From: a virus
Taxonomy: Duplodnaviria; Caudoviricetes
Reading direction: 5' to 3' (one strand)
DNA length: 54,049 nucleotides
IMG/VR virus record: IMGVR_UViG_3300018080_002591
Location: 1-54,049 of that record
In this document: one piece after another, positions 6,880 to 26,557 of the stretch
How the letters are laid out: each line of letters opens with the position of its first letter
Position numbering within the stretch: position 1 is the stretch's first letter
Translations under genes and position numbers: made by a program
The notes under the pieces: model-generated
What the model was told of the DNA's origin: nothing
Seen by the model: only the letters and a program-made list of their open reading frames with translations
Databases searched by the model: none

Positions 6880-7286
6880 TGGGATCTAGAGCAGATTTCT
6901 ACATTGGCATGAATAATCCAAAATGGATTGGTAGTATTAGTAGAAATGGACATCCATGGAATATTCCATGCAGATTATTGATACAAAACAATATCGTTAT
7001 GTACGAAGAAATTGTTATTGACTTTTTAGCAAATAATAATGGGTTTATTAAATCAATAGGCAATTCGTGGCCATGGCCATGGGAAAACAGTAAATTAACT
7101 AACTATTCATATTTCTTTAAAAGAAGTCATAATATGGTTTATGCATATTCAATGGTAGATAAAACAGTATTCAATCCATTGAAAATTATGCAGGGCGAAG
7201 ACATGAAAACCGCCCATGTTCACATAGCGATAAATTTTCCATTAATGGGAGTGGGTTATGGACCAAACGTTACCAAGACTGTATAA
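6879..7286 (+). CDS. Hypothetical protein
   Basis: TAATG coupling to the upstream gene; MGSRADFYIG, WIGSI, WPWPW motifs. Confidence 0.65.
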   Translation: MGSRADFYIGMNNPKWIGSISRNGHPWNIPCRLLIQNNIVMYEEIVIDFLANNNGFIKSIGNSWPWPWENSKLTNYSYFFKRSHNMVYAYSMVDKTVFNPLKIMQGEDMKTAHVHIAINFPLMGVGYGPNVTKTV

Positions 7287-8562
7287 GGATTACGGGGAGT
7301 ATTCAAATTATCGGAATTTTCCCTTAGACCTTGACGGTCTTAAACCTGTAGAACGAAGAGTATTATTATCAGCTTACAAAATTGCGAGAGCTAAATATGT
7401 AAAATCACGGCAAGTTGATTCATATACAACTGGACACTATCACCCACATGGAGAATGTTACGGGACGATTGTTCAATTAGTTCGTCAAGGGTTTTTGATT
7501 GGTCAAGGTAATTTCGGATCTAATGTTGGTGTTGAACCAACCGGTCCAGCAGCACCAAGATATACAGAATGCAAAATTGATCCACGAACATTGGAATTAG
7601 CATTTAAGTATATTAAATACTGTCCTGAAGTCCCAACTGAATTAGGTGACAAGGAACCAGTATTTTTACCAACAATGATACCGATATGTTTATTAGGAAA
7701 TGATTATACTCAAGGCATTGGATTTGGTTATAAAACATTCATACCATGTTTTTCATATACTTCATTAAAAAATAGACTTATGTGGTTATTGGGTCATAGA
7801 AAAACTGAACCTGTTCCTGTTCCTAATTCGGATTGTACAGTAACAGCTTCACCTTCTGACCTGAAAAAACTATTAACAACAGGAAAAAATAAAATAGATG
7901 TTGAAGGGATTATCGAAGAAAATCCCAAATTAAATAAAGTTATATTAAAATCATGGCCGCCCGGTAAAAGATTTGAAACGATTCTAAATAAGTTTTCTGC
8001 GGAATTGGATTCGGGTATGATTGGTTTTACAGATCTATCATCATTTGAAACAGAAATTGTTTTTCAGGTGTTGAGAGAAAGAAGTCGCGATAAAATATAT
8101 CAAGATTTTGTAGCAAAGTTGAAAGATGTAATTAAAGGAACGATATCATTTGAAACAACGGTAGTTGATAGTAACAGGAAAGTTGTTGTTAAATCAGTCG
8201 ATGATCTTCTTTTGGACACATACAAAATGTTCGCTGGAATGAATGAGACAATGCTTAATGAAGAAGTCAGAAGAACTGATGATCAAATTGCAGAATATAA
8301 TTTACTCGATATAGTAAGACCTGTACTAGCATCATGTATCAAAGATGGGTTTGATATGGAAATGACATTTACATTTATTAAAGATGCAATAGAAAAAATT
8401 GACCTTGATGCAGTAAAAGAGTTAGTAAATAAATATAAAATCAGCAAACTATTAACTTTAGATACTGATACACAAGAATTAGTTGATAAAAAACAACAGT
8501 TTACCCAAACGCTAGCAGAGTTGGACAAATTTTTAGTAGAACAATATTCAATGTTTAAATAA
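7258..8562 (+). CDS. gyrA: Type IIA topoisomerase subunit A (GyrA/ParC-like), lacking the C-terminal pinwheel domain
   Basis: DGLKPVERRVL, YHPHG, GQGNFGS, AAPRYTE (catalytic Tyr), GIGFG; only 434 aa. Confidence 0.9.
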   Translation: MDQTLPRLYKDYGEYSNYRNFPLDLDGLKPVERRVLLSAYKIARAKYVKSRQVDSYTTGHYHPHGECYGTIVQLVRQGFLIGQGNFGSNVGVEPTGPAAPRYTECKIDPRTLELAFKYIKYCPEVPTELGDKEPVFLPTMIPICLLGNDYTQGIGFGYKTFIPCFSYTSLKNRLMWLLGHRKTEPVPVPNSDCTVTASPSDLKKLLTTGKNKIDVEGIIEENPKLNKVILKSWPPGKRFETILNKFSAELDSGMIGFTDLSSFETEIVFQVLRERSRDKIYQDFVAKLKDVIKGTISFETTVVDSNRKVVVKSVDDLLLDTYKMFAGMNETMLNEEVRRTDDQIAEYNLLDIVRPVLASCIKDGFDMEMTFTFIKDAIEKIDLDAVKELVNKYKISKLLTLDTDTQELVDKKQQFTQTLAELDKFLVEQYSMFK

Positions 8563-8572
8563 GGGAGACTAT

Positions 8573-9001
8573 ATGTATAGAATATCAAAAGAGTTCAGTT
8601 TTTCAATGGGGCATAGACTCAGCTGCCATCAAGGATTATGTAAAAATTTACATGGCCACAACTATTCAGTTGTTATAACATTGAAAAGTGAACATTTAAA
8701 TCCAAATGGAATGGTGATGGATTTCGGAGACTTGAAAGCAATAGCAGAAAATCACTTCAAACAATTTGATCATGCTACAATGATCAATAGAAGCGATGTA
8801 GATAGATTTATGAAATTGCAGCAAGAAATGCCATTCTTAAAAATTGTTGTAGTTGAATATGAACCAACCGCAGAAAACATGGCGAGGGAAATATTCAATT
8901 ATTTCAAAGGAGAAGTAGCAAAATATGAAGGTAACATAGAAGTAGATCAAGTTAGTATATATGAGACGGATTCGTCTCAAGCAACATATTCCGAAGATTA
9001 A
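8573..9001 (+). CDS. queD: 6-carboxy-5,6,7,8-tetrahydropterin synthase
   Basis: FSMGHRL, CKNLHGHNY, GMVMDFGDLK, FDH, PTAENMA, YET motifs. Confidence 0.92.
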   Translation: MYRISKEFSFSMGHRLSCHQGLCKNLHGHNYSVVITLKSEHLNPNGMVMDFGDLKAIAENHFKQFDHATMINRSDVDRFMKLQQEMPFLKIVVVEYEPTAENMAREIFNYFKGEVAKYEGNIEVDQVSIYETDSSQATYSED

Positions 9002-12323: not shown

Positions 12324-14513
12324 ATGAGAAATATAACATTTCATGAAGTAGGTATGGAGAATTTTGGACCATATATCGAACCCATGGTTTTGCCATTCAC
12401 TAATAATCATTTAACATTGATAACAGGACCAAATGGTATCGGTAAAACAATGTCGCTTGAAGCATTGCCATTTACTCTATTTGGAGAGACATGTAAAAAA
12501 GTAAAAGGCGATGATGTTGTAAATAATAGAACTGGCAAAAATTGTCATACATGGACAAAATTTACAATCAATGATGATACATATCAAATAGATAGATATC
12601 ATAAATATACGAAAATAGGAACCACTGTAACCATTTGTAAGAATGGAGAAGAACCATATAAAAAGGGTCATAGAGAAGTAGTCCCTGAAGTCGAAAAATT
12701 AATTTGCTCAAAGAAATCATTTACAAATACATTGATGTTTGGGCAAAAAGTAAAAGACTTTTTCACCGATCTCATTGACTCTGATAAAAAAGAAATATTC
12801 AGAAAAATATTGGATTTGGACATTTATACAAAATGGTACAAACAAGCTGATCTTGATCTCAAGGCAATTAAAGAAAGCATTCAAGAAGCATTGAAAAAGA
12901 TTGGAGTTGATCAAGGAGTTTTATCGGTTGTAGAAAATCAGATCGATGTAGTGAATCAACAAATCAAACGTTTTGAAGATGATAAAAAAGAAAAAATTGC
13001 AACTGAAAAGAAAGCTCTTGAAGATTCGCAAAGACTTCTTGACGGTTGGCAAAAAGATTTAGATAAACTTGTTGATACTGGTGCCGACATTGAAAAGTTA
13101 AATAAACAAATTCAAGATGTTGAAAAACAGAAAAGTCATCATATAAATGAAAAAGAAACAACAGTTTTGCAATTAATGAACAGTCGTGATGCAAAAGTAT
13201 CAGAAATGCAAACGGCTGCCGATAAAGCAAAGCAAAACATTATTTCAGAACAACGAAGCAAATATGATACATTCTTATCTGGTCATCAAAAAGAAATAGA
13301 AAAAATTGATGATGAAATAAGTACTATTAAACAAGAGAAATCTAATATTGCATCTGAATTATCTTCTATTGAAACTGAAAAAAGAATCATTCAAACTAAC
13401 ATTGATAAATTAAATAATAGTCTTGAATTAGATGAAGGTTCATGCCCAACATGCCTTCGAGAAATTGATGACGCATGTAGAAAGCATTTAGAAGATGAGT
13501 CAATGAAGTTAGTTAATGCATATTATGCATTAGAGAAAAAAGAAAAAACATTACAAGATCAAAACACTAAAACGTTTGAAGCTTTAAAAGAAGCTGAAAC
13601 GAAAAAGACACAACAGCATAATTCATTTCAAACTATAACATCAGATTTAAAAACTGAAGAAAATATAAAAATAGCTGAAATTGATGATAAATTGAATTCA
13701 ACATTTGACACGATTAAAGAGTTGGCTGATAAACAAGCAGAAAAAATTGAAGCAGATTACGTTGAATACATTGATAACTTATCAAAGAAATTAGCTGAAT
13801 TGTATGAAATGAAAGATGTTGTAACAGATACAAATGAAAAAAGAGTTGAAATTGAAAATATGATTAATAGTCTGCAACAAAATATTGCTGGGCATGAAAT
13901 GAAACTCAAAATTGCAGAGGAAGAAGAATATGATAAAAGTCAATTGACTGAATATCAAGTTAAAAAACAAGAGCTTGAAACAGCCATTGCAATTTCAAAT
14001 ACTACTCTTACTGAATTAAAAAATGAAGAACAATTAGCATTATTCTGGAAAACCGCATGGTCACCAACTGGAATTCCTTCGATGTTAATTGATGAAGCAA
14101 TACCATTTATGAATGAAAAGGTCACCGAGTATCTTGACCTATTATCAAATGGAAGATATATTGTTTCTTTCGATACATTAGCTGCAACAAAAGCAGGTGA
14201 GTTCAGAGATAAAATTTCAGTTAATGTTCTTGATACATACACAAGAGCAAATTCAAGAATGCAACTATCAGGTGGTCAAACGAGACTTGTTGATATTGCA
14301 ACTATATTAACACTCGGAGATTTACAATCAAGCGTTCAAGATGTTAAAATAAATATATTATTATTCGATGAAATCTTTGATAGTCTCGATGAAGAAAATA
14401 TCGGGTTTGTTTCAAAAATACTATCACAATTAAAAATCGACAAATCAATTTATTTGATATCACATACACAAGTTGAACAACTAGAAGCGGACGAAACACT
14501 GGAATTCAAATGA
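12324..14513 (+). CDS. Rad50/SbcC-like ATPase (T4 gp46-like)
   Basis: GPNGIGKT Walker A, long coiled coil with central CPTC zinc hook, LSGGQ signature, LLFDEIFDSLD, ISH. Confidence 0.93.
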   Translation: MRNITFHEVGMENFGPYIEPMVLPFTNNHLTLITGPNGIGKTMSLEALPFTLFGETCKKVKGDDVVNNRTGKNCHTWTKFTINDDTYQIDRYHKYTKIGTTVTICKNGEEPYKKGHREVVPEVEKLICSKKSFTNTLMFGQKVKDFFTDLIDSDKKEIFRKILDLDIYTKWYKQADLDLKAIKESIQEALKKIGVDQGVLSVVENQIDVVNQQIKRFEDDKKEKIATEKKALEDSQRLLDGWQKDLDKLVDTGADIEKLNKQIQDVEKQKSHHINEKETTVLQLMNSRDAKVSEMQTAADKAKQNIISEQRSKYDTFLSGHQKEIEKIDDEISTIKQEKSNIASELSSIETEKRIIQTNIDKLNNSLELDEGSCPTCLREIDDACRKHLEDESMKLVNAYYALEKKEKTLQDQNTKTFEALKEAETKKTQQHNSFQTITSDLKTEENIKIAEIDDKLNSTFDTIKELADKQAEKIEADYVEYIDNLSKKLAELYEMKDVVTDTNEKRVEIENMINSLQQNIAGHEMKLKIAEEEEYDKSQLTEYQVKKQELETAIAISNTTLTELKNEEQLALFWKTAWSPTGIPSMLIDEAIPFMNEKVTEYLDLLSNGRYIVSFDTLAATKAGEFRDKISVNVLDTYTRANSRMQLSGGQTRLVDIATILTLGDLQSSVQDVKINILLFDEIFDSLDEENIGFVSKILSQLKIDKSIYLISHTQVEQLEADETLEFK

Positions 14514-14965
14514 AAATAAAAAGCGATTTTGTTACAAATAGTTCATCAACTGCTTATATAATTTGTGTACCTAATGAGTTCATTCCTAGTGAAGAAGATA
14601 TACTACCTGAAATTAAAACTCTAAATGAAGAATATGAAGGGTTTGAACTACAAATGAAAACCAGTGAAGCTATACAACATATACAAAATTTATTTGAAGA
14701 TTTGAAGTTTGGAGAAACTTTAGATTGTTATGAATATGATGATTTTAAACCAGTGCCTTTTGGTGTTGTTTTAAATATATGTGAAAAATATAATTTCGTT
14801 CTAACTGGTTTTGAAATACATTTAGATGGACAACATATTTTACATGGACTCCAGCAAGAATTAATAGATAAATGGGTCATTGATACAAAATTAAAAGACA
14901 TAACAATTGAGGTAATTAATGAACAAAATAAGGATTGTAAATTGGCTATTAACAAGGAGATGTAA
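14510..14965 (+). CDS. FVTNSSS-motif protein, paralog 2
   Basis: ATGA overlap with the Rad50 stop; MKIKSDFVTNSSSTAYII. Confidence 0.75.
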   Translation: MKIKSDFVTNSSSTAYIICVPNEFIPSEEDILPEIKTLNEEYEGFELQMKTSEAIQHIQNLFEDLKFGETLDCYEYDDFKPVPFGVVLNICEKYNFVLTGFEIHLDGQHILHGLQQELIDKWVIDTKLKDITIEVINEQNKDCKLAINKEM

Positions 14966-15968
14966 TTTAAAATGTGATTATTGTGCAATAGTTAAAAATT
15001 ATGATGGCAAACCAGAAGAATATCCTGATATGGATCATTATATAAAAAATGAAATGACAACCGAACAAGTTCTTTCGGGGCTGGCAACAATCAAATTACA
15101 TAACCCAGATGCATTTCACATCTTTTATGGCGGTGAGCCGATGTTGAGGAAAGATTTGTCAACCATTATAAATTATTGTAATGATGAGGATATTCATTAT
15201 ACAATAATCTCAAACAATTCACCTGAAGTTATACCCTTAATTAAAAAATTAGTAAAAGAAACTAATGGAAAAATTAAAGGGTTTACCGCATCAGTTGATC
15301 CTGTAATATTTACAGAATCAAATGAATTAGATGATAAAGAAAAAGACCGAGTTATGAAGAGTCTGGCTGGGTTTGAAAATTTAAAAGAGATGAAAAAATA
15401 TTGCGATGATGTTGTTGCAGAAATAACAGTTATGAAACATAATCAACAATATTTATCCACATTGGTTGAAGTATTAACTACTGTTGGAATCAATAGCGAT
15501 ATAACATTTATTGATATTGCGAAAACGCCTTATTATGATTTTTCAAATATTTCAGATGAGGATTTGCTTGTTGAAAATTCACCCGAGCTAGCTGAACAAT
15601 TTCAATCAATTTCAGATGGCGATTTAGATGTTCATATGAAACGAACATTGCTACCTGAAATATGGAATATTCTTCCATCTAATATGGATTGTGGAATAGA
15701 TAAAAGTCTTCATAATATATCAATTGATGCAGATGGCAGTATTCGTTTGTGTTTAAGAATACGAGGCACATTATCTCCATCATTAGTTCCATCAATAGAT
15801 TCATTGTTCACAAAAGATTATAAAGTACATCCAGTTGCACATTCAATCATAAGCTCAGACAAAAAGAAGCATTGTAAATTATGCAATCATACTTGTCAAT
15901 TAATGAGCAAAATTATAGATGATAATAATTTAAGTCCTGATGATCTAGTACATCTGGACCGGAGGTAA
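14919..15968 (+). CDS. Radical SAM protein with C-terminal Cys-rich (SPASM/twitch-like) region
   Basis: CNLKCDYC, YGGEPMLR, SIDADGSIRLC, CKLCNHTC. Confidence 0.88.
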   Translation: MNKIRIVNWLLTRRCNLKCDYCAIVKNYDGKPEEYPDMDHYIKNEMTTEQVLSGLATIKLHNPDAFHIFYGGEPMLRKDLSTIINYCNDEDIHYTIISNNSPEVIPLIKKLVKETNGKIKGFTASVDPVIFTESNELDDKEKDRVMKSLAGFENLKEMKKYCDDVVAEITVMKHNQQYLSTLVEVLTTVGINSDITFIDIAKTPYYDFSNISDEDLLVENSPELAEQFQSISDGDLDVHMKRTLLPEIWNILPSNMDCGIDKSLHNISIDADGSIRLCLRIRGTLSPSLVPSIDSLFTKDYKVHPVAHSIISSDKKKHCKLCNHTCQLMSKIIDDNNLSPDDLVHLDRR

Positions 15969-15970
15969 TT

Positions 15971-16306
15971 ATGGCAGATTTTGATCCAACTGTTATTCAA
16001 AACGCAATTCAGTTTTGGCACAAAGTCAATACAGAAGATCAAGTAAGAATTAAATTTACAAAGAAAGATGGCACTACACGATTTATGGTATGTACGTTGA
16101 ACTTTAAAAAAATACCAGCGATTGACCATCCGAAAAATGTAAACATGCCAAAGATTTTAAAGTTAATGCAAAATAGTGGCATATTACATGTTTATGATCT
16201 TGAAAAAAAGGGATGGCGATCAGTCCCATTTAACTCAGTTGAATATTTAGAAGCTGGAGATAAAATGTATAAAATTCAACCAATAAAACGGATGGGGGAT
16301 AAATGA
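15971..16306 (+). CDS. WYL-like SH3 beta-barrel phage protein (DUF2693-like)
   Basis: VRIKFTKKDGTTRFMVCTLN...VYDLEKKGWRS. Confidence 0.7.
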   Translation: MADFDPTVIQNAIQFWHKVNTEDQVRIKFTKKDGTTRFMVCTLNFKKIPAIDHPKNVNMPKILKLMQNSGILHVYDLEKKGWRSVPFNSVEYLEAGDKMYKIQPIKRMGDK

Positions 16307-16674
16307 CGAAAGAAACAACCTTAGATAAAATATTGAAAGAGATTCCTTCATCTGATATGACTCAACAGATAAGAGAGTTTTGTGATGTCATAATGAAGGA
16401 AGAAATGTCAAGGATGCCAAATATTGAATATGCTCCGAAGGGGCCAAATAAATTTGCAATCCTTGAAGTAAATGGTTTGTTAAAAAGAGAGATTGGATTT
16501 ATAACTCTTGAACGTGAAAGTGAAGAAGATTATATTGGAGTTTATTGGACGTTTAGATTGGATAAAAAAGATAAACCTCCTAGAAAAAATAAAGTTCATA
16601 AAATCGAAGGCAATAGTGCAAAGAAGATATTATATCAATTTGCGAAACTTGTAAAATTTTATCGCGGAGAATGA
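16303..16674 (+). CDS. Hypothetical protein
   Basis: ATGA overlap, RBS GGGGG, operon context. Confidence 0.65.
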   Translation: MTKETTLDKILKEIPSSDMTQQIREFCDVIMKEEMSRMPNIEYAPKGPNKFAILEVNGLLKREIGFITLERESEEDYIGVYWTFRLDKKDKPPRKNKVHKIEGNSAKKILYQFAKLVKFYRGE

Positions 16675-16675
16675 A

Positions 16676-19342
16676 ATGACTGAATCAAAGGATTTGCAAT
16701 TAGAATTAGAAGAAATAAGGTTAAATAAATATTACTGTACACGGTCTGTTTCAAAATTTCCTGATGGAGAAAATGGAGATTCAACACCAATCCTTAATAG
16801 AAATACAATTAGAACACCCGAATTGATGAACAAGATCCAAAAGTATCATTCAATGTTAAAAACTGATTATCAAGTGGATCATCTATTTCCACCGAATTGT
16901 CGATATTATGAAAAACATCCAGAAGGGTTTTTCGTTGTAATTGAAGAACCCCCGGCATTTAGGACAATTAGTATTGACAAAGATTTATCAAGTGAAATTC
17001 AATCATTAAAAAGTTCAGGTCATTGGGAAGAATATGGTTATGAAAACTGGCAAAAAGAAAATCATGGACCCCCATATCAGTTTACATTAGCATTACCATA
17101 CACTGTATTTTGTTTAGCATTTACAGAATCATATGATCATTTGGGTGGTCAGGTATTTTTTAGAACACAACAGATCACAGGATTTAGTGATATTCTTCTA
17201 AAAGCGCCATTTTTAAATATAAGTGATAGTCATAATATTTGTTTTGGTAATAAGATACATCACGGTCCAAAAAGAAGTATATACGCAGATGTAAACCATG
17301 CAATATCAACATTCTGGTCAACAATATTCAATACAGATTATCTTTATAATTATGTTGCATATCAAAACATACCTCTATTATGTGACTATTTTACATGGCA
17401 ATATCATTCTAATATTGATCCAATGTTTATTTATAGTGCTGATTGGATCAAGGAAAAAGATATAACCATCGGTACACAAATTGATCGGATGAAAGCTTGG
17501 TTAAGCGAAAGATCATGCCATGACCATAAACAGTTCGAATATCGTACATTAAAAGATCTTTTTCAACAATCAAGTGAAAAAGGTCGTGCGAAGGTTCCTG
17601 GCGTTAAAGGTCTTACGGAACCATTGTTGTTTGATATTTCAAATTCAATGAAACTTGGCGAAAATGTATATGTTTCAGTTGGTGATTCATTTAAAAATAA
17701 TTACGATCAGATGATATATGTTGATTCTTATATGGGTTTTAGAAAAAGTCCAAGACCGTTATATATTAGTCTTGAACGTCACGATGGTAGGATATTTAAA
17801 TGGAAATTAACCAAAAAAGTTTGCGAATATATAGCAGAAAAGATTAAAGCCGAGCGTCATCTATCAGAAGCAACATTACCCAACGGTTTGGTAATAAAAA
17901 GTGGTGATATTCTGGAAATGAAAAATGCTTATGGCCAGAATATTTATCGTAAAATATTTTATATAAGATATTCTAGAACTGGTGAGGTTGAAGCACGAGT
18001 TGGTGCCGAATATTATATTGTCAATAATATCGAGAAAGATACACAAATTTTTGATGTATCTAACCCAAAATATTTTGACATGACATTATCTAAAGATGAA
18101 CAATATTATATAATCAAAAGAGATCATTTTGACGCAAATCATATAATTAAAGCAGCGTCATGTAATTTCGATAGCATAGATACTGGGCGCGATAGCGGCG
18201 GTTTAGTAATGAAGTTTAGAGAAAACAGAGGACTTGACCAAGGTCATCGATACAATATACCGATAGGATCAAACGAAAATACTTTCAGAAAAATTTATCC
18301 AATGGATAATTTGAAAACATTACCAGAAATATTTACAGTTGGTCGTCGTTTGATGTATATATATAGAGAGACGGAAACTGGAAGTATTGTCGAGAAAGAA
18401 CCAACCGTTATCCCGAATTTGGGGATTGTAATAGAGTATGCTTGCTCTATCAGAAAGGCAGCTTCCGACCAAATTGTCAAACATAATTTTATTCAGGATG
18501 ATCGTTTTGCTCTTGAAAGTTGGAATCATGTATATGATTTTGAAATTGGCGATAAAGTCGTTGTAGCAAATTGGGAAAACCCAATTGACATGCTAACGGT
18601 TAAACAAATTCAAGGATTTGTTGAAGATAAAAATACCGGCGATATCAGTTTTACTTTAGTTGATAAAAACGAAAACGTTACTAGTTATAAATATATCGAC
18701 GGTGCAAAGAGACTTGCGAGACTTGGTTCTGTTAGAAAAATTACTAATGTGTGGGGAGAATTAACTTCCGGCATGAAAATTGTTGCAAATCAAGCCAGAA
18801 TTAGTATGTTTCCGAAAAAGGATACCAATATAATTATTGGTTTTCTCTATGACACTGGTGGTGAAGAACCTTTAGTATTATGCTCAAATGCTAATACTTT
18901 ATGGTATAGCGATGTTATTAATAATTTCGATATAATAAAAATGGACGACGAAGCATGGAAAACCAAACAGCATGCTTCAATTAACCCATCAAAAATGAGA
19001 TATCAATCTGGAGATATACTTCAAGGTCAGCATTACTATAAAAATGATATAGGCTACTTAGTATACATACCTAGAGATCAACGAACAGTTAGAGCTTCAA
19101 GCTTAGCTTATTATCAGTCGTATGACGATAATTTTGTTTTTGATAAATCATTTACCGAAGATGTTATGTTTGATATCTTCCCTAACCCGAGATTGACAGT
19201 GACACAAGAAAACAAACTTGGTCTTGTAAATGTATTCCCTAATTTTCATGGAATGTTTACAAAAACTGACGAGTCTCACTCACCATACAAAGTTGCGAAT
19301 GACAGAAGGAGTATATTAAATGATGTTTCCAGTGATAATTAA
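16676..19342 (+). CDS. Prokaryotic E2 family D-like (PRTRC protein B-like) domain plus a long beta-rich C-terminal extension
   Basis: VVIEEPPAFRTI, FTLALPYTVF, LLKAPFLNISDSHNICFG (candidate catalytic Cys), FWSTIFN; directly upstream of JAB, E1 and Ubl genes. Confidence 0.7.
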   Translation: MTESKDLQLELEEIRLNKYYCTRSVSKFPDGENGDSTPILNRNTIRTPELMNKIQKYHSMLKTDYQVDHLFPPNCRYYEKHPEGFFVVIEEPPAFRTISIDKDLSSEIQSLKSSGHWEEYGYENWQKENHGPPYQFTLALPYTVFCLAFTESYDHLGGQVFFRTQQITGFSDILLKAPFLNISDSHNICFGNKIHHGPKRSIYADVNHAISTFWSTIFNTDYLYNYVAYQNIPLLCDYFTWQYHSNIDPMFIYSADWIKEKDITIGTQIDRMKAWLSERSCHDHKQFEYRTLKDLFQQSSEKGRAKVPGVKGLTEPLLFDISNSMKLGENVYVSVGDSFKNNYDQMIYVDSYMGFRKSPRPLYISLERHDGRIFKWKLTKKVCEYIAEKIKAERHLSEATLPNGLVIKSGDILEMKNAYGQNIYRKIFYIRYSRTGEVEARVGAEYYIVNNIEKDTQIFDVSNPKYFDMTLSKDEQYYIIKRDHFDANHIIKAASCNFDSIDTGRDSGGLVMKFRENRGLDQGHRYNIPIGSNENTFRKIYPMDNLKTLPEIFTVGRRLMYIYRETETGSIVEKEPTVIPNLGIVIEYACSIRKAASDQIVKHNFIQDDRFALESWNHVYDFEIGDKVVVANWENPIDMLTVKQIQGFVEDKNTGDISFTLVDKNENVTSYKYIDGAKRLARLGSVRKITNVWGELTSGMKIVANQARISMFPKKDTNIIIGFLYDTGGEEPLVLCSNANTLWYSDVINNFDIIKMDDEAWKTKQHASINPSKMRYQSGDILQGQHYYKNDIGYLVYIPRDQRTVRASSLAYYQSYDDNFVFDKSFTEDVMFDIFPNPRLTVTQENKLGLVNVFPNFHGMFTKTDESHSPYKVANDRRSILNDVSSDN

Positions 19343-21074
19343 TGATGGTACAGCAGAAATTCCGGATTCTGATATATATTATATTGTTGGTAAAGAAGGA
19401 GTTTTTCTAAAAAAGAAATTGGGTGTTATGGAAAGCATAGCCCCAGTCAAAAACATTTCAATATTAGAAAGCGTTCAATCAATGGCTAGGATGCATATCC
19501 GAAAAATTCCTGCAAAAAAGGCAAAGCAGATTCTAAACTTTTTCAAAGCCGTTTATGAAGAACATTATTCAGAAGCAATAGTACTTCTGTTTTACAATAT
19601 GGAGAAACAACATTATAAAGTTGTCGTTCCCGTTCAGGAAGTTAGTGGTGGTGCTGCAGATTATAATAAAGCAATCACTATCGATGGATATGATATGATC
19701 GGTACAATTCACAGTCACGCTGGAATGTCAGCATTTCATTCCGGTACAGATGACGATGATGAAAAATCATTTGATGGACTTCATATTACATTTGGTAATA
19801 TGCGAGATAAGGACATTAGCGTATCAGCGTCTATTGTTGCCAATGGTCATCGTATCATAGTAGACCCATCTGAATATATCAACAATATAGAAATGACAGT
19901 TGATATTGATGAAGAAGAAAAAGTCCCAATGGCACAAACATGGCGTTGGGACAAGGACCAGCATAAAATGGTTCAAGTTAAATCTGAGAAATTTTATACT
20001 AGACGTAAATTTGATCAACGATATCAGATTCACCTTGCAAAAGATCCAAAGTTTCCTGCTAATTGGATGGAACGTGTTACAAAGAAAACATATGTCAGTC
20101 AATATGCAGGCACTGGCTGGGCAGGTGGTTGGCAAGGTCATAACGCAGGTTATGATTCGGATTATTGGAAAGATTGGAAAGGTCATGGCGTTCAGGCTAA
20201 TAAACCAGGCACAGTAACTCCAACTAAACAAAACAAAACTACGCCAGCAACAGTTCCGAATAAACCAACCGTTGTATCGAAGGAAACTCCATGCGATGCG
20301 TGTTCATTCAAACATCATAAAATTAATCTTAGCATTGAGAGGATGGATGACGAAACTAAAAAAGCTATATTAGCATGGGCGATTGAAAAACTAGAGGGTA
20401 ATAATTATCAAGTTGTACCCGGAGAAGAAGTAGATGAAACTGGATTAACCCATTATCATTGCGCAGGCTGCCAGGAATACATTTCAGTTGATGAAAACAC
20501 TGAAGGTAGTGCATGTTGTCCAAATTGTCAAACTGATGATTATCTAATTGAGGTTTCTTCTCAAGAAATCATGATGGAGGTTGGTGGTACATATGAAGAA
20601 GATGATTCGACTACCGGCAATATGATTAAATGTGAAGAATGTGGAAGTTCGTTTACCGAAGATTTTTTAAATGATGGTCATTGTCCTACATGTAATACTT
20701 TATTACCTGTAGAAGTTGATACTGAACTTGATGCATCTGATGACATTGTAATTTGTCCTGATTGTTTCAAAGAAAATGATCTGATGGAACTGGCGGTTGA
20801 TAATAAATGCTTCTATTGTTCATGTGAGATTTCTCCATATGAAATCGCCGAATTATTGAGGCAACGAAACCGTGGTAGAGATCCATTGGAAAATCAAATG
20901 GATAATGATTCTGGCGCCTTTTTAGATCCAGAAAAAGAGGCAATCGAACGAATCGCACAAGATGATATAGAACGTATCCCAGTTCCTGATAGCGATTCAA
21001 CGCCAATCACTAAAACTAAAACAGGAGTTTTTGCTTCAATATTTGAAAAAGCAAAAGCTTTAAGAAAAGGTTAA
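19320..21074 (+). CDS. JAB/MPN+ metalloisopeptidase with C-terminal zinc-ribbon array
   Basis: SEAIVLL...GTIHSHAGMSAFHSGTDDDDE (E-x-HxH-x7-S-x2-D JAMM motif), GLHITFG; CxxC pairs CDAC, CAGC/CPNC, CEEC/CPTC, CPDC/CFYC. Confidence 0.88.
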   Translation: MMFPVIINDGTAEIPDSDIYYIVGKEGVFLKKKLGVMESIAPVKNISILESVQSMARMHIRKIPAKKAKQILNFFKAVYEEHYSEAIVLLFYNMEKQHYKVVVPVQEVSGGAADYNKAITIDGYDMIGTIHSHAGMSAFHSGTDDDDEKSFDGLHITFGNMRDKDISVSASIVANGHRIIVDPSEYINNIEMTVDIDEEEKVPMAQTWRWDKDQHKMVQVKSEKFYTRRKFDQRYQIHLAKDPKFPANWMERVTKKTYVSQYAGTGWAGGWQGHNAGYDSDYWKDWKGHGVQANKPGTVTPTKQNKTTPATVPNKPTVVSKETPCDACSFKHHKINLSIERMDDETKKAILAWAIEKLEGNNYQVVPGEEVDETGLTHYHCAGCQEYISVDENTEGSACCPNCQTDDYLIEVSSQEIMMEVGGTYEEDDSTTGNMIKCEECGSSFTEDFLNDGHCPTCNTLLPVEVDTELDASDDIVICPDCFKENDLMELAVDNKCFYCSCEISPYEIAELLRQRNRGRDPLENQMDNDSGAFLDPEKEAIERIAQDDIERIPVPDSDSTPITKTKTGVFASIFEKAKALRKG

Positions 21075-21076
21075 TT

Positions 21077-21754
21077 ATGGAAATAGTTGTTATTGGATTA
21101 GGTGGTGTTGGTTCTCTGTTATGTGAAAGAATGGCAAGATACTTAGCTTATTCATCAGGGACCAAAGCAAGCATGTTGTTAGTTGATGGTGACTCTTATG
21201 AAGCCAAAAACTTCGAAAGACAAGACTTCACCCAAATGGGCAACAAAGCTGAAGTAAAAGCTGCTGATTTAAAAATGCAGTTTTCAATGTTAAATGTAAG
21301 TTCATTCCCTGCCTTCGTGAATGAAACCAATCTTGCTCAAGTTATTAAAGAAGGTACTATTGTTTTTAGTTGTGTAGATAATCATAAAACCAGAATGATA
21401 CTTTCAAACTATTGCAAAGAATTACAAAATGTTACATTGATTTCTGGTGGGAATGATCTCATTGATGGGAACGTACAGATTTATATAAGGCAAAATGGAA
21501 AAGATATTACTCCAGACCTTTGTGCGTATCATCCAGAGATTGCAAATCCCGATGATAAGTTACCCGAAGAGATGTCATGCGAAGAATTAGCAGCTTCAGA
21601 ACCACAATTATACTTCGCTAATCTCGGTGTTGCAACCATTATGTGTTGGGCGTTTTATAACGCCATTGTCAAGGGCCAGCATGAAAAGTCAGAGATTTAT
21701 TTTGATCTTACTCAAATGACTTCTATTGCTAAACAAAGAATCGTGAAAAACTAA
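21077..21754 (+). CDS. E1-like ThiF/MoeB adenylyltransferase
   Basis: VIGLGGVGS, LVDGDSYEAKNFERQ, NKAE, CVDNHKTR, SGGN, MSCEE (candidate thioester Cys). Confidence 0.92.
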   Translation: MEIVVIGLGGVGSLLCERMARYLAYSSGTKASMLLVDGDSYEAKNFERQDFTQMGNKAEVKAADLKMQFSMLNVSSFPAFVNETNLAQVIKEGTIVFSCVDNHKTRMILSNYCKELQNVTLISGGNDLIDGNVQIYIRQNGKDITPDLCAYHPEIANPDDKLPEEMSCEELAASEPQLYFANLGVATIMCWAFYNAIVKGQHEKSEIYFDLTQMTSIAKQRIVKN

Positions 21755-21756
21755 CC

Positions 21757-21771
21757 TGACTTTCAAAGTCA
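21757..21771. promoter_or_regulatory. Perfect 7-bp inverted repeat upstream of the Ubl gene
   Basis: TGACTTT-C-AAAGTCA. Confidence 0.4.
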
Positions 21772-21804
21772 AAAACAAAAAAATGTGAAAAGGAATTAAA
21801 AATT

Positions 21805-22278
21805 ATGGCACAGTACAAAAGAGAAACTTTAGAAGACAAAACCGTTCGTGATCTCCGTCAACTCGTAGTAAAATTGGGTATCCCTGGATTCACCAAGAAA
21901 CCTAAAAGCGTTATCATTGACGCTATTATGGCCAAACATGGTGTTACCGGCGCGGCCGCATCAATTGCCGCAGATGGCCCAGCCGCTGCTAAACCTCTTG
22001 ACGGAGTAGAAGCAACCTTCCAATCTTCAGTAACCAAACCTTCCCTGAAAAAAGGTGAACGTCTCAGCACAACACTTCAGGTATCCTGTGGTGCTTCTTC
22101 TGGTCGTTTTCCTGTTGCTGGAAGAACCGTTGCCGAAGTTGGGGATTTCCTTCGGGAAGTTCTTAATGTAGACAAACTTTCAACCGGTCTTGTAAACGGT
22201 AAAGAAGTTGATGGAAGCTATGTGCTTAAATCAGGCGATACTCTTGAATTCCTGAAACCAGCTGGGAAGAAAGGTTAA
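21805..22278 (+). CDS. Ubiquitin-like (beta-grasp) protein with an N-terminal Rho-N/HeH-like domain
   Basis: N-terminal LEDKTVRDLRQLVVKLGIPGFTKKPKSVIIDAI; Ala-rich linker; C-terminal GRTVAEV...LVNGKEVDGSYVLKSGDTLEFLKPAGKKG ending in Gly. Confidence 0.85.
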   Translation: MAQYKRETLEDKTVRDLRQLVVKLGIPGFTKKPKSVIIDAIMAKHGVTGAAASIAADGPAAAKPLDGVEATFQSSVTKPSLKKGERLSTTLQVSCGASSGRFPVAGRTVAEVGDFLREVLNVDKLSTGLVNGKEVDGSYVLKSGDTLEFLKPAGKKG

Positions 22279-22290
22279 TATCCTTTTAAA

Positions 22291-22316
22291 TGAGGGGCTC
22301 CTTTGGGAGTCCCTCA
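22291..22316 (+). terminator. GC-rich stem-loop after the Ubl gene (terminator or mRNA stabiliser)
   Basis: tgaggggctcc-tttg-ggagtccctca, 11 bp with one G-U; no U-tract on the + strand. Confidence 0.55.
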
Positions 22317-22359
22317 CCCACTGTTATAAATATGAAATGGAAAGGAGCATATCGTGTAA

Positions 22360-23265
22360 ATGAATCGAATAGCTGTAATTGGACTAGGCACACTCGGCGG
22401 AGCCGTATGTAAAAATTTATCAACAATGGAATGTATAGAAGAACTGGTTCTTGTTGATTTTGATATTTTAGAAAGTCGTAATATTCATAATTCGGTATAT
22501 CGCGCATCACAAATTGGAGATCGAAAAGTTGACGCTCTCACAGAAATTATCGAAGACGATATTGACATAATACCGATTCATGAAAAATATAAAGAAGGAA
22601 AAACAAATCTTCCTGAATGTGATTTAATTGTAGATTGTAGAGATGTTGTATGTAACAGAGGAAAAGAAATCGATGTTCGATTATACATAACAGGTAAAAT
22701 TCTTATCATTGATTGTAGAAAAAACATTCGCACTCAACATATTTATAAAGGTTCATATAGAAGTCAATTGTCAAAAAGTGAGTTGAACAGTGCAGGTTTC
22801 TTTGCTTCGCAAATATTATGTAGCGATCAAATAACAAAAATGAAAGAACAAAATTTGGTTCAAAAAATTGATTTGAATTTATTACCAACACTAATAAATA
22901 ACGAAATGACAGAAAAAAATAAAAATCGAATTGATATTGTTTATGATTCAGCAGTTGGTGATAGACTTCAATGTCTTGAAGAAAACATAGAACCAATACT
23001 TTGTTTAAGCAGGACAAAGGATATTGATGTTTTTATAGGCGAAAAACATTTTGATCCATTTAAAAAATTAAATAAGTTACCACAAGTTGCAAAAACAAAA
23101 TACGCTGTAATCCCTCATAATTCTCTAAACAATTCAAATGATTTGATCAAAGCTTTAACAAATATAGTAAAAGAACAATGTAACATAGTTAATTTTATTG
23201 TTACATTACGAAAAGTGAATGGAGAAACGTTTATTGAATTACTCGAAGAAACCGGAGCAGCCTAA
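22360..23265 (+). CDS. Second, divergent ThiF/E1-like protein
   Basis: VIGLGTLGG, LVDFDILESRNIHNS, IGDRKVDAL, LIVDCRD; unrelated C-terminal half. Confidence 0.8.
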   Translation: MNRIAVIGLGTLGGAVCKNLSTMECIEELVLVDFDILESRNIHNSVYRASQIGDRKVDALTEIIEDDIDIIPIHEKYKEGKTNLPECDLIVDCRDVVCNRGKEIDVRLYITGKILIIDCRKNIRTQHIYKGSYRSQLSKSELNSAGFFASQILCSDQITKMKEQNLVQKIDLNLLPTLINNEMTEKNKNRIDIVYDSAVGDRLQCLEENIEPILCLSRTKDIDVFIGEKHFDPFKKLNKLPQVAKTKYAVIPHNSLNNSNDLIKALTNIVKEQCNIVNFIVTLRKVNGETFIELLEETGAA

Positions 23266-23668
23266 TGATATTCAATTTATTGTTGGAAGCTCTAATGGAA
23301 AGGATTTATATAAAAAGACACATATATTCATAACGAAATTAATTCCAAATAGAGTCATTCTTAATAAAAATGTTTATAGAATAACTCATATAGATGAACG
23401 TTATCACATGGATGGTTTTTCATTAACAACAGAAAATGACAAAGTACTCTATGTTAGAGTCTTTGGATATCATCCAAATTGTGACCCAGATACAGATATT
23501 TTTTGTTTACCGGATTTTAAAAAAGATATATACTTAACAAAAGAATATTTAGATCTAATCATAAGTAATATTCAAACATATTATTTAGATAACTGTTATT
23601 TTAATCCAACTGGACGAAAACTTCGTTATGAAAAAATGCAGTCGATGTATGTGCAATTAAATAAGTAA
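23219..23668 (+). CDS. Candidate UBC-type E2-like protein
   Basis: VFGYHPNCDPDTDIFCLP resembles the UBC signature HPN-x7/8-C-L; follows the second E1. Confidence 0.5.
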   Translation: MEKRLLNYSKKPEQPNDIQFIVGSSNGKDLYKKTHIFITKLIPNRVILNKNVYRITHIDERYHMDGFSLTTENDKVLYVRVFGYHPNCDPDTDIFCLPDFKKDIYLTKEYLDLIISNIQTYYLDNCYFNPTGRKLRYEKMQSMYVQLNK

Positions 23669-23677
23669 GGAGAAAAA

Positions 23678-23899
23678 ATGCCAAAGAAAAAATCGAATCC
23701 TATTGAAACATATGTTGAAGATGTAGTTAAAAAAATACTGGATGAAAGAGAATCACAACTAAAGGAAGAAGATGCTAGAGAAATTATAAAAGCAATGCTT
23801 CCTGAAATTGAATCGATTGTATCCAAAGTTATTCTATCACATTTTCATGCATTAGCATCGTATGTAAAAACAAATTTAAAGGATCCAAAGGAGAAATAA
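23678..23899 (+). CDS. Small helical hypothetical protein
   Basis: RBS AAGGAG; immediately precedes the RNAP beta' gene. Confidence 0.7.
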   Translation: MPKKKSNPIETYVEDVVKKILDERESQLKEEDAREIIKAMLPEIESIVSKVILSHFHALASYVKTNLKDPKEK

Positions 23900-23902
23900 C
23901 AT

Positions 23903-26557
23903 ATGCCAAAAATTCTCAACTATCAACAATTCTGCGAAGATCTACCAGAAGTTACTTCTTTAAAAACAATAGGAAAAAAGAAGTTTCACGAAAACGGATT
24001 GTTTTCAGAACAGATTTTTGGACCGGTAAAAAATTATACCTGCCAATGTGGTACTTATTATGGTATTTCTAAATCTGGTGGTAAGTGTGATCTGTGTGGA
24101 GTTGATATTGCTAATAGTGATGAACGTAGACAAAGATTTGCGAAAATTGTTTTGCCTATGGCAGTAGTGAACCCGTTGATGTATGATTTGATAGTTGACC
24201 TCGGTGGTAAATCTATTAAATCAGCAATCGATGATTTGATGAAACATGAAAAAAGTGTTCTATACATGGATGGTGAAGAATGTGTTGTTACAACAAATTC
24301 GGACAACTTGCCAGATGGTACTGAAGTGTGGGAAAAGACAGATGCAATATATAAATTAGTTGAGATTATAGCAAAACCTTTAGCAGATGAAGGCATTGAA
24401 GAATGGCAACTAATAATGGATAATATTGATAATCTATTAATTAATAAAATTATTGTACTACCACCTGATTTAAGACCTGTATCAAAAGGCGGTGCCGGAA
24501 AACAATTGATGGACAAAATCAACAGATATTATGTTCAGATATTGACCAAAAAAGAAATAATGAGAGATACTGTAATGGATATTCATTCAGATAAGAATGT
24601 TTATTATACTTATTTCACACAGTTGCAAAGTGTAGTAAATGAACTATACACAAGAATCTTAGAAAAGATGGCAAAGAAAGAAGGTCTCATTCGTGGTAAT
24701 ATATTGGGAAAACGAATTGACTTTTCTGGTCGTGCTGTAATTGCACCCGAACCAACATTAAATCTAAATGAATGCGTCTTGCCATATTTAATGATTCTTG
24801 AGATGTTCAAACTCCCAATAGCAAAACGTATTATAGAACTAGGACATTTTAAACTATTAAATAAAGCAATAAATTTTGTAGATCAATGTATAGAAACAGA
24901 TGATCCAGTTTTGTTTAAAATTGTTGAAAAACTTATTGAAGGAGAAGTCTGTATTCTTAATAGACAACCCTCCTTGCACAAATTAGGAATGCTTGGATTT
25001 TACATCAAAGCATCACTTGACAAAGTTATTAAAATACACCCATTAGTTTGCCCTCCATTTAATGCAGATTTTGATGGAGATCAAATGGCTGTTTACATCC
25101 CCGTAACACAAGAAGCAAAAGAAGAAATTATTGAAAAAATATTTGTTACGAAAAACCTCAACAGCCCGGCGAATGAAAACTTAACAACAACTCCAAGTCA
25201 GGATATTGTTTTGGGTATTTATTTTCTGACATCAAAACCAGAAGGTGAAGAAATATTCAATGACTGTTTGCCTGACGATTATAAACGTGTTACTGGTATT
25301 GTTGATAAAAATGTTTTAATGGATGTATTAAACGATATAAAAGATATTTACCCCAATCATGTAACAGCAACAGTGTTAGATGAAATCAAAAAGATAGGTT
25401 TTAAATATGCAACATTAGTTGGTTGTACAATGTCATTAGAAGATTGCTATTTCGAAGGTTCTGGTGCTATGCGAGATGAGTTGTATAAAAGCAATGAACC
25501 AAGAACTCAATTGATGGCATTAAATAATGATGCTGTAGTTGATGAGCTAAGACAAAAGTTCATGTATTCATATTTAATTGATTCTGGTGCCAGAGGTAGT
25601 TGGGATCAGGTTAAACAGTTAATATTAACAAGAGGATTCATTTCAAATTTTGATGGAGAAATTCTTCCACAACCAATTAAGCATAGTTTGATAGAAGGGT
25701 TGACAGAAGAAGAGTTTTTCTTTTCAACATACGGATGTAGAAAAGGATTACTTGATGTTGCATTGAATACCGGAACAAGTGGATACTTATCACGAAAGTT
25801 GATTTTCACATGTGCAAATTTACAAATTGATAATGAAGAAGATTGTGGCACTGATGATTATCTAACTGTTGCAGTTACGTCTCCAAGAAAAGCAAGAATG
25901 TTAGTAAATAGATATATGAAAGGACCTCATGGTTTAGTTAAAATAACAAAAGATAATTGTATGAGTCTTTTAAATGAAACGATTGAAATCAGAAGTCCAA
26001 TCTTATGTAAGAATCCAAAAATATGTCGAACATGTTATGGAGATTTATATAAGAAATTGAACAGTCGCTTTATCGGAATTATTGCAGCACAAACTCTTGG
26101 AGAGAGATCAACACAATTAGTATTAAGAACATTTCATACATCCGGAGCAGCTATAATCAAAGGCGATCAAAGTCAAACAGAAGGTGCCATCGAACAAAAA
26201 GATATTATCGGTGACCTATCTGCTGTTGCATCATTGCTTCATAGATTCAAAGGCAAAACTTACGAGGATATTGTCTCATCGCTTTTTGATGTATACGATA
26301 AGAATATTTATCATATACACTATGAATGTGTAGTCGCACAATTAATGTGGGTTGATTATAGAAAATGGAGATTGATTGAAAATAGAGATGAATATAAACC
26401 TCAATATTATTCAATTCAAAGCGTACCAAATCAAGAGAGCTGGATCTTAGCAATGGCATTCTCAAATCCAAAGAGATCTATTCTTCAAGGTATTTTATAT
26501 GAAGGTAGATATTCTGGTATCATGGATAAAATATTAACTGGAGAACGAATTTCATGA
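23903..26557 (+). CDS. rpoC: DNA-directed RNA polymerase beta' subunit, compact
   Basis: GLFSEQIFGP, CQCG/CDLC Zn site, PPDLRP, GKRIDFSGRAVI, LNRQPSLH, NADFDGD, RKGLLDVALNTGTSGYLSRKL (bridge helix), QTLGERSTQLVLRTFH (trigger loop). Confidence 0.96.
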   Translation: MPKILNYQQFCEDLPEVTSLKTIGKKKFHENGLFSEQIFGPVKNYTCQCGTYYGISKSGGKCDLCGVDIANSDERRQRFAKIVLPMAVVNPLMYDLIVDLGGKSIKSAIDDLMKHEKSVLYMDGEECVVTTNSDNLPDGTEVWEKTDAIYKLVEIIAKPLADEGIEEWQLIMDNIDNLLINKIIVLPPDLRPVSKGGAGKQLMDKINRYYVQILTKKEIMRDTVMDIHSDKNVYYTYFTQLQSVVNELYTRILEKMAKKEGLIRGNILGKRIDFSGRAVIAPEPTLNLNECVLPYLMILEMFKLPIAKRIIELGHFKLLNKAINFVDQCIETDDPVLFKIVEKLIEGEVCILNRQPSLHKLGMLGFYIKASLDKVIKIHPLVCPPFNADFDGDQMAVYIPVTQEAKEEIIEKIFVTKNLNSPANENLTTTPSQDIVLGIYFLTSKPEGEEIFNDCLPDDYKRVTGIVDKNVLMDVLNDIKDIYPNHVTATVLDEIKKIGFKYATLVGCTMSLEDCYFEGSGAMRDELYKSNEPRTQLMALNNDAVVDELRQKFMYSYLIDSGARGSWDQVKQLILTRGFISNFDGEILPQPIKHSLIEGLTEEEFFFSTYGCRKGLLDVALNTGTSGYLSRKLIFTCANLQIDNEEDCGTDDYLTVAVTSPRKARMLVNRYMKGPHGLVKITKDNCMSLLNETIEIRSPILCKNPKICRTCYGDLYKKLNSRFIGIIAAQTLGERSTQLVLRTFHTSGAAIIKGDQSQTEGAIEQKDIIGDLSAVASLLHRFKGKTYEDIVSSLFDVYDKNIYHIHYECVVAQLMWVDYRKWRLIENRDEYKPQYYSIQSVPNQESWILAMAFSNPKRSILQGILYEGRYSGIMDKILTGERIS

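Follow-up and report, generated by a model that had tools for sequence, protein, structure and literature searches.

A six-gene cassette encoding E2-like, JAB, E1-like and ubiquitin-like proteins in an uncultured jumbo phage: a putative conjugation system distantly related to PRTRC

[quoted passage not shown] PRTRC (ParB-Related, ThiF-Related Cassette), known from plasmids, integrative and conjugative elements and some prophages, combines a Prok-E2_D-type E2, a JAB peptidase, a compact ThiF and a ubiquitin-like protein (Ubl). Here we describe a cassette with likewise these components, also borne by a mobile element, at positions 16676-23668 of IMG/VR virus record IMGVR_UViG_3300018080_002591 (54,049 bp; the window, that is, the whole record). 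A preliminary description made from the letters of this DNA had proposed a complete ubiquitin-like conjugation locus in six consecutive open reading frames (ORFs) of the + strand, and all six are there, in the order E2D-barrel protein, JAB, ThiF1, HeH-Ubl (helix-extended-helix Ubl), ThiF2 and E2'. Each of the six domain calls has support from at least one tool, and components of both writer and eraser are encoded; the qualifications concern the second ThiF, the E2 status of the 149-aa protein, and protein conjugation with its targets and a counter-defence role, which are predicted. In our view the locus is probably a phage system of ubiquitin-like conjugation and deconjugation, a distant relative of PRTRC to which a second E1-like/E2-like pair has been added, as judged from sequence comparison and structure models. 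We see in it a new and more elaborate form, carried in the phage core, of a known but so far only predicted kind of system.

Some elements of this kind are known from viruses. Lambda-type Ubl and JAB tail genes and mobile E1/E2/JAB operons were described by Iyer et al. in 2006 (PMC1779556), a PRTRC protein B is noted on a Phocaeicola prophage in a 2026 preprint (10.64898/2026.10.01.756045), and an Asgard virus is reported to carry three E1-like genes (10.1101/2021.07.29.454249). In the accessible text of the 2021 jumbo-phage survey of Iyer et al. (PMC7824862), 'ubiquitin' appears twice, and JAB, ThiF and Ubl do not occur. Full-text literature, with the supplementary tables of the Bil and Bub surveys outside its scope, yielded no description of a complete Ubl/E1/E2/JAB cassette in a tailed phage.

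An entire clade of jumbo phages carries the six-gene cassette as a fixed module; it is not unique to the window phage. A scan of IMG/VR with the E2D alignment found 42 loci, every one with E2D, JAB, ThiF1, Ubl, ThiF2 and E2' in this order (42/42; E2' was detected by the narrow E2' model in 40 and by a broader model in the last two). A scan that started from distant E2' members found 45 loci; the cassette is complete in all 37 that have full upstream DNA, the other 8 are cut by contig ends, and ThiF2 lies directly upstream of E2' in 44, the 45th having only ~110 bp of upstream sequence. The two sets amount to 65 distinct contigs, counted by contig name. Identity of the E2D proteins to that of the window is 28-60%, with the catalytic Asn/Cys, the JAMM motif and the adenylation residues invariant. 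Since the six-gene order recurs across 65 other viral contigs at this level of identity, the cassette is far beyond chance; the synteny search in phage contigs suggested by the preliminary description thus recovered this order in all loci having enough DNA. Residue conservation is given below for a set of 38 non-redundant related phage loci, window included. An additional ORF separates Ubl from ThiF2 in some loci, of 167-215 aa in 16/42 and of ~80-95 aa in 5/42 (for example, L009:7189-7788, L011:11191-11763 and L043:3375-3929), for which a Pfam scan gave nothing useful beyond one weak Phage_gp49_66 match; in the window the gap is 82 nt, with no insert. The position of these inserts suggests two sub-modules, E2D-JAB-ThiF1-Ubl and ThiF2-E2'.

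The first gene (16676-19342, + strand) encodes the E2D-barrel protein, 888 aa, with a Prok-E2_D match, a model domain resembling ubiquitin-conjugating (UBC) enzymes, and barrels. Pfam Prok-E2_D (PF14460) aligns with residues 174-222 at E=2.2e-4 (21.4 bits; gathering cut-off 25), matches 33/37 E2D homologues at E<=0.01 (best 3.3e-8), and is present in the precomputed annotation of several of them. The AlphaFold2 model, built from a 37-sequence alignment, has a pLDDT (predicted local distance difference test) of 86. When the model is compared with 48,161 PDB representatives by VIA-align, the matches to residues 64-270 among the top 50 are UBC E2 enzymes only (Z 5.0-5.2 over 115-126 residues), including 1yf9_C (Z 5.2, 124 aa), 1zdn_A (Z 5.2, 126 aa), and 8uqe_B, 6jb6_A, 8jwu_A and 8pmq_E (Z 5.0-5.1). 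Residues ~64-270 of the model are therefore described here as a UBC-like, Prok-E2_D-related domain, at modest Z values. The preliminary description had pointed to an E2-family-D-like motif, KAPFLNIS..NICFG, and had considered that the N-terminus might nevertheless lack an E2 fold. The motif is present, with Asn181 and Cys189 kept in 36/36 untruncated sequences, in keeping with the Asn and catalytic Cys expected ~8 residues apart after the β-sheet of a UBC-like fold. The model matches UBC E2s, and the E2D family profile aligns with the stand-alone Prok-E2_D protein of Bacillus phage Edson (hhalign 89%, E=2e-6), where PFLN...ICFG pairs with PFSN...ICWG and the Asn and Cys are in register. A tblastn search with the 888-aa protein found no match in 50,697 phage records; when genome_contigs was scanned with the E2D alignment, 21 places matched the pattern and none was confirmed, a scan which is limited by its pattern and so does not prove absence from cellular genomes.

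Downstream of the UBC-like domain, residues ~395-770 are modelled as tandem Tudor/KOW/BAH/SH3-like β-barrels (VIA-align Z 5-6.6). The top Foldseek matches of the 888-aa model are the KOW arrays of SPT5, and UBE2O (7un6_A) is matched at E=1.5e-3. In UBE2O a UBC domain is joined to SH3-like barrels as in the E2D-barrel protein, an analogy only, with no detectable sequence relation; the domain order of UBE2O differs. By analogy, the Tudor/KOW-like array is presumed to be a target-recognition module. A candidate for a split version of this array, the 559-aa gp197 of KLEB27-3, shows no similarity to the E2D family by hhalign.

The second gene (19320-21074, + strand) encodes a JAB/JAMM metallopeptidase of 584 aa, with a Prok-JAB domain, the JAMM motif and CxxC pairs. 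The Prok-JAB score of 26.1 bits is above the cut-off of 25, and the best specific relative of the protein is NCBIfam PRTRC_A (E=4.1e-11, residues 3-177). The metal site E...HxH...S..D, called an intact JAMM motif in the preliminary description, is indeed complete in the window and in every relative (E85, H131, H133, S141 and D144 in 38/38). The C-terminal half has seven conserved CxxC pairs at residues ~325-500, which amount to ~three to four units resembling zinc ribbons; a 3-sequence alignment shows no variation in the Cys pairs. For comparison, three or four Cys pairs are reported in Borg JAMM peptidases (PMC12660748). A PDB sequence search with JAB gave no relevant match. We presume that JAB is the enzyme of both Ubl processing and deconjugation.

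The 157-aa HeH-Ubl (21805-22278, + strand) consists of a Rho_N/SAP-like helix-extended-helix N-terminus, a low-complexity linker and a ThiS/TGS-like C-terminal half that ends in ...FLKPAGKKG. The window protein matches TGS (E=6e-4, 20.2 bits, cut-off 22.2), Rho_N (7.9e-4) and ThiS (0.014, 16.3 bits, cut-off 22.5), and among 36 family members TGS is matched by 27, Rho_N by 26, ThiS by 18 and Ub-Mut7C by 4. Of 38 homologues, 19 stop at Gly (...AG(K/R)KG), 13 at Gly followed by Cys, 4 have 1-9 further residues, and 2 are truncated ORFs; Gly157 is kept in 36/38, the remaining two being the truncated ORFs. Extended forms in related loci include ...KKG-C and ...RKG-DRKGC. C-termini that end in Gly, or extend 1-9 residues beyond it, are expected of a processed modifier; the Ubl C-terminus is the most informative feature here, and the observed pattern appears to be that of modifiers whose terminal Gly has to be exposed and which have a peptidase of their own to trim them. 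A β-grasp-type protein ending in AGKKG, as first proposed, is thus consistent with both the TGS/ThiS family matches and the conservation of Gly157. A PDB sequence search with Ubl returned no relevant match, and ESM Atlas returned viral Rho_N clusters only, without structure.

The two E1-like proteins are different in completeness. ThiF1 (225 aa; 21077-21754, + strand) is a compact E1-like adenylating enzyme that matches Pfam ThiF at 5.4e-20 (72 bits); PRTRC_ThiF (9.4e-11, residues 2-215) is the only model that spans it nearly end to end, and the closest solved structures are UBA5 (4e-7) and MoeB (7e-7). GxGxxG, D37, N45, R48, Q49, K57, D101, N102 and R106 are kept in 38/38 loci, and D39 in 37/38. 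In the C-terminal part, Cys168 (in 'SCEE') and Cys190 are invariant, so that the candidate thioester Cys singled out at the outset, Cys168, is found in 38/38 sequences next to a full set of adenylation motifs.

ThiF2 (301 aa; 22360-23265, + strand) has an E1-like Rossmann/adenylation domain. Pfam ThiF passes its cut-off (6.8e-13, 48.8 bits) over residues 3-96 only, and the closest solved structures are MoeB (4.7e-12), ThiF, Cap2 (3.6e-9), MccB and UBA3, with BubCD also listed. The G-loop, Asp and Lys motifs are retained. At position 44 of the RQ motif, however, the five commonest residues are N27/K4/T3/S1/V1, and Arg is found in 0/38; because no family member has the RQ-motif Arg, ThiF2 is probably not a plain second E1 and may be an inactive partner domain. 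Thus, of the earlier call of a second ThiF, the domain assignment stands, whereas its reading as an independent E1 probably does not. In Bil an inactive and an active adenylation domain are paired within the E1, the inactive one supplying an Arg, and eukaryotic E1s are alike in this respect, according to PMC10557695; ThiF2 and ThiF1 could copy this domain pair on two polypeptides. Heterodimeric E1s such as NAE1-UBA3, with an active and a degenerate adenylation subunit, offer a further comparison, as an analogy only. The C-terminal region of ThiF2, ~150 aa, has no recognised fold and ends in a near-invariant tail, ...E(L/I)(I/L)(P/E)ETGAA (residues ~290-301; 38/38 homologues, with variants TGGA, SGSA and TGGS), whose strictness suggests that it serves as a substrate, for docking or for autoinhibition. 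As a fused Ubl, this region was rejected, hhalign finding no similarity to the Ubl family (0.1%). ESM Atlas returned ThiF clusters only for ThiF2, with a poor Atlas model (pLDDT 0.49).

The last gene, which overlaps the end of ThiF2 by 47 nt, encodes E2' (149 aa; 23219-23668, + strand), with the motif HPN(x8)C. The HPN motif defines UBC enzymes. H85, N87, C96 and C126 are kept in 36/36 close members, and when 81 distant members are aligned, HPN and C are kept in at least 90%. AlphaFold2 (pLDDT 79) predicts a β-meander followed by the HPN loop with the Cys and then by a helix. Most of the top Foldseek matches in PDB are UBC E2s, but at E values of 0.2-0.9; VIA-align places 1yrv_A (UBC) best (Z 4.9, 105 aa) and BubB (9eav_D) second (Z 4.6), so that the structural neighbours are mostly of UBC/RWD type and the matches weak. 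No E2 family was found in a Pfam scan of 36 members, UQ_con was matched by 1/40 distant members (P0126, E=0.003), PDB sequence searches with the 3-sequence and 81-sequence profiles gave no relevant match, and a BFVD fold search gave nothing at E<=0.001, its top match being a giant-virus E2 at E=0.1. The assignment of the HPN..C protein as an E2 is therefore upheld in part: the motif is invariant in 36/36, whereas no sequence match at family level was found and the fold matches are weak (Z<=4.9, Foldseek E>=0.2). Prediction of a ThiF2-E2' complex scored 0.00 in two runs with controls absent, and has no bearing on binding either way. Six distant members of 220-305 aa (P0181, P0185, P0201, P0213, P0218 and P0222) contain two stretches that match the profile, that is, tandem E2' domains.

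Compared with the tested defence systems, the phage cassette shares with Bil (BilABCD) the arrangement of Ubl, E2, JAB and E1 as separate genes; Bil differs in serving host defence, in its single-chain E1 with a mobile CYS domain and in having no E2_D-type E2. PADLOC 2.0.0 returned no Bil family for the window proteins, the presence of Bil models in its library being unchecked. The Bub (6E/DUF6527) operons contain diverged E1, E2 and Ubl proteins, BubB being a structural neighbour of E2' and BubCD one of the matches of ThiF2. The Bub pathway proceeds via Ser/oxyester intermediates and includes a serine protease, DUF6527 (PMC11601596); the phage cassette, in contrast, has invariant Cys residues, and DUF6527 was not found in the window. 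With type II CBASS, the N-terminus of ThiF2 resembles the E1 domain of Cap2 (PADLOC Cap2 'E1-E2' profiles match residues 2-90 at up to 6.7e-11, only the E1 part matching), JAB is comparable to Cap3, and ThiF2-E2' is translationally coupled, like a split Cap2. Unlike the E2-E1 fusion of Cap2, the phage order is E1 then E2, and the substrate is a dedicated Ubl or possibly the ...ETGAA tail of ThiF2. Library scans found no CD-NTase or effector families in the flanks of the cassette.

The resemblance of ThiF2 to the E1 domain of Cap2, in the PADLOC profiles and in PDB alike, is one of the reasons to consider counter-defence, where JAB would strip host Bil/CBASS conjugates and the host machinery would face competition from, or be misdirected by, the phage E1, E2 and Ubl. 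Such a purpose is compatible with the same chemistry as that of a conjugation system in the phage's own service, and differs from it in purpose only. Bil, which tags phage tail proteins, and type II CBASS, where Cap2 primes cGAS-like enzymes, both turn E1/E2/JAB chemistry against phages (PMC11601603, PMC10557695), and it has been proposed that Borg elements counter host SAMPylation with the many JAMM peptidases, containing Cys pairs, that they carry (PMC12660748). Still, we regard counter-defence as unlikely: all related contigs examined carry the six genes as a fixed set, with catalytic residues invariant at 28-60% identity, and the genes stand among core replication and transcription genes. 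Anti-defence genes are typically sporadic, unlike this pattern. Moreover, an eraser alone would strip host tags, yet a dedicated Ubl with a DNA-binding-type domain of its own is conserved.

Several comparisons fix the distance between the phage cassette and PRTRC, and they also count among the points that weigh against a conjugation system of this lineage. The NCBIfam models of PRTRC (TIGR03735/03736/03737) have cut-offs of 101.8 bits for PRTRC_A, 144.75 bits for PRTRC_ThiF and 131.45 bits for PRTRC protein B; JAB scores 42.8 bits with the first, ThiF1 41.5 bits with the second and E2D 12 bits (E=0.097) with the third. On the same side are the Pfam score of E2D, below the curated cut-off (21.4 vs 25 bits), the matches of the window Ubl, also below curated cut-offs, and the β-grasp call itself, which depends on those family matches. 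E2' is without a sequence-level link to E2 families, its fold matches, at Z<5, are in the range that the tool calls common, and hhalign detects no relation between the E2' and E2D profiles. For ThiF2 and the barrel array, the proposed roles are suggested by analogy only. Members of the ThiF family also carry out sulfur transfer and peptide or tRNA modification, MoeB, ThiF, TcdA and MccB being among the PDB matches, and a radical S-adenosylmethionine (radical SAM) gene is always found upstream of the cassette. Finally, no biochemical test of PRTRC was found in the surveyed literature, where PMC11601603 gives CBASS, Bil and Bub as tested, and protein conjugation by the phage cassette, which we consider probable, is predicted from sequences and models alone.

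Because the NCBIfam scores are far below cut-offs, and because ParB and Prok_Ub had no match in the cassette or in the flanking ORFs in library scans, the cassette is a distant relative of PRTRC and not a member. Fusions set three of the phage proteins apart from PRTRC: E2D has ~600 aa of barrels attached, JAB has zinc-ribbon-like repeats, and the Ubl has an HeH domain. An extra ThiF2-E2' pair is present, the Ubl is not of the Prok_Ub type, and the location is in the core of a lytic-type jumbo phage.

Simpler E2_D-JAB(-ThiF) cassettes are found in cultured jumbo phages, namely Bacillus phages vB_BauM_KLEB27-3, Edson and vB_BceM_WH1, and Vibrio phages D69, D181 and D148, which makes the prediction testable at the bench. 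In KLEB27-3 and Edson the order is a four-repeat Prok_Ub protein, two uncharacterised proteins, E2_D, JAB and ThiF, so that E2_D, JAB and ThiF follow one another as in the window; the E2_D protein of the Bacillus phages stands alone (~240-255 aa), the Ubl is upstream, and no ThiF2/E2' turned up in the scanned stretch. The E2_D-like protein and JAB were the only components recognised in the Vibrio phages. ThiF1 is 27-29% identical to the ThiF of cultured jumbo phages. Loci from cultured phages include OM634661.1 161788-174378 (L004), PV796108.1 175959-188519 (L049) and OZ195729.1 170038-180394 (L048), and the GenBank records of their cassette genes are mostly hypothetical.

In the mechanism that we favour, the Ubl would end at Gly157 or, in relatives, be trimmed to that Gly by JAB. 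ThiF1, as the sole E1-like protein with a complete active site, would adenylate the terminal Gly and probably form a thioester on Cys168; ThiF2, which has no RQ Arg, would more likely act as a partner resembling the inactive adenylation domain, or as an E2-docking subunit, than as an independent E1. The next to accept the Ubl would be Cys96 of E2', Cys189 of E2D, or both. Targets may be selected by the barrel array fused to E2D, as in an E2/E3 hybrid, so that the tag, with its putative nucleic-acid-binding HeH domain, becomes attached to target lysines, and JAB may reverse the modification.

We favour a function that serves the phage itself, for instance in transcription, in genome handling or in taking over the host, over an accessory one, because the cassette is fixed, deeply conserved and next to the phage RNA polymerase genes. 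On the virus side, then, the chemistry known from host defence would reside in a module of six genes, which is a fixed feature of a deep clade of giant phages, and not in a stray gene. If the cassette does conjugate, phages, like eukaryotic viruses, would use ubiquitin-like tagging of their own to run infection or to fight defence, and the PRTRC-type E2_D/JAB/ThiF family would gain a function. A bolder version, which we consider doubtful, has the clade run a multi-tier, eukaryote-style cascade as an essential core function, with a split, heterodimeric E1 (active ThiF1, degenerate ThiF2), an HPN-type E2, an E2/E3 hybrid of the E2_D domain with its Tudor/KOW array, a HeH Ubl and a zinc-ribbon JAB as editor, where the hybrid tags transcription or genome-handling proteins of host or phage. 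If true, this would be the first prokaryotic virus demonstrated to have a ubiquitin-like code that it both writes and erases itself.

The genome around the cassette is that of a phage. The viral context read from the sequence at the outset is borne out by genes for a T4-type large terminase subunit, baseplate, topoisomerase II, SbcCD, helicases and RNA polymerase beta'/beta-like proteins. Given this gene set, the low identity of its terminase and RNA polymerase beta' (at most ~29% to any of 50,697 phage records) and the size of related contigs (223-312 kb), the source is an uncultured jumbo phage. CheckV puts the completeness of the window at 17%, which makes it a fragment of a genome of ~300 kb; the G+C content is ~31%.

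The cassette sits amid replication and transcription genes, and the structural block lies at 35-52 kb. This location bears on another explanation, that of virion assembly or maturation, where Ubl and JAB would process virion proteins like lambda I (Ubl) and K (JAB), and the E1/E2-like proteins would be non-catalytic scaffolds. Ubl+JAB pairs are indeed known from phage tail-assembly clusters (PMC1779556). With the cassette outside the structural block, and with all catalytic residues invariant in JAB, in E1 and in the two E2-like proteins, which argues for enzymes rather than scaffolds, we hold this explanation to be very improbable.

Directly upstream of the cassette are three genes of the + strand: a radical SAM/SPASM-like protein (14919-15968; Radical_SAM 1.8e-10, with weak matches to viperin and peptide-maturase families), a WYL_2 Sm-like protein (15971-16306; WYL_2 6.5e-10) and a 123-aa ORF (16303-16674) that immediately precedes the E2D gene. 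Among the non-redundant loci, 36 (the window being one) extend far enough upstream, and in all 36 this trio occupies the same place; it might be part of the cassette module. On the other side, the RNA polymerase beta' gene is found in 38/38 non-redundant loci. Adjacency is weak evidence of functional linkage here, because the entire region is syntenic in the clade.

The upstream radical SAM enzyme brings in a further, quite unlikely explanation, in which ThiF1 adenylates the ThiS-like domain to yield a thiocarboxylate sulfur donor or to activate the carboxylate, JAB only matures the carrier, and the pathway, together with the radical SAM enzyme, leads to nucleic-acid or cofactor modification. 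The Ubl does match ThiS/TGS, ThiF1 and ThiF2 match MoeB, ThiF, Uba4, TcdA and MccB, the radical SAM gene is upstream in 36/36, QueD-like and second radical SAM genes are found elsewhere in the window, and operons of JAB, ThiS and ThiF for sulfur assimilation have been described (PMC1779556). Yet two UBC-like proteins with invariant Asn/Cys, needless for sulfur-carrier pathways, are integral to the cassette; the carrier has an N-terminal HeH domain, and the closest relatives are PRTRC components. Scans of the window ORFs with family libraries found no ThiG, MoaE, rhodanese or cysteine desulfurase, in agreement with the absence of nearby sulfur-transfer genes (ThiG, MoaE, rhodanese) that the first reading had taken to favour protein conjugation. 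A conjugation system distantly related to PRTRC is the reading that we prefer.

Between E2' and the RNA polymerase beta' gene there is a 73-aa ORF (23678..23899, + strand), detected by BLASTP in 20/38 non-redundant loci and without a family match in library scans. The RNA polymerase beta' (884 aa; 23903-26557) and beta (999 aa; 26744-29743) genes are both unsplit but short; a 61-aa ORF between them was detected in 17/38 loci. In a scan of 14000-24500, promoter-like signals are ~2 standard deviations and terminator-like signals ~1 standard deviation above the shuffled mean, and are uninformative for operon boundaries. The tRNA scan found no tRNAs. Within the structural block, the 1180-aa ORF at 39643-43185 matches no PHROG at E<=1e-5. 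A search of sequencing runs lists no RNA holders and six DNA holders, from sediment, seawater and ballast-water metagenomes, one of which is possibly the source sample.

Elsewhere in the window there are a QueD-like 6-pyruvoyl-tetrahydropterin synthase gene (8573-9001), another radical SAM-like gene where the window ends (53121-54047) and a phosphoheptose isomerase-like gene (51982-52533), which hint at nucleotide/DNA modification and sugar metabolism. Two topoisomerase II genes (896-2704 and 7258-8562) lie ~4.5 kb apart, separated by a helicase-HNH fusion (4532-6445) and ORFs without an assigned family, and a separate HNH endonuclease is encoded at 244-927.

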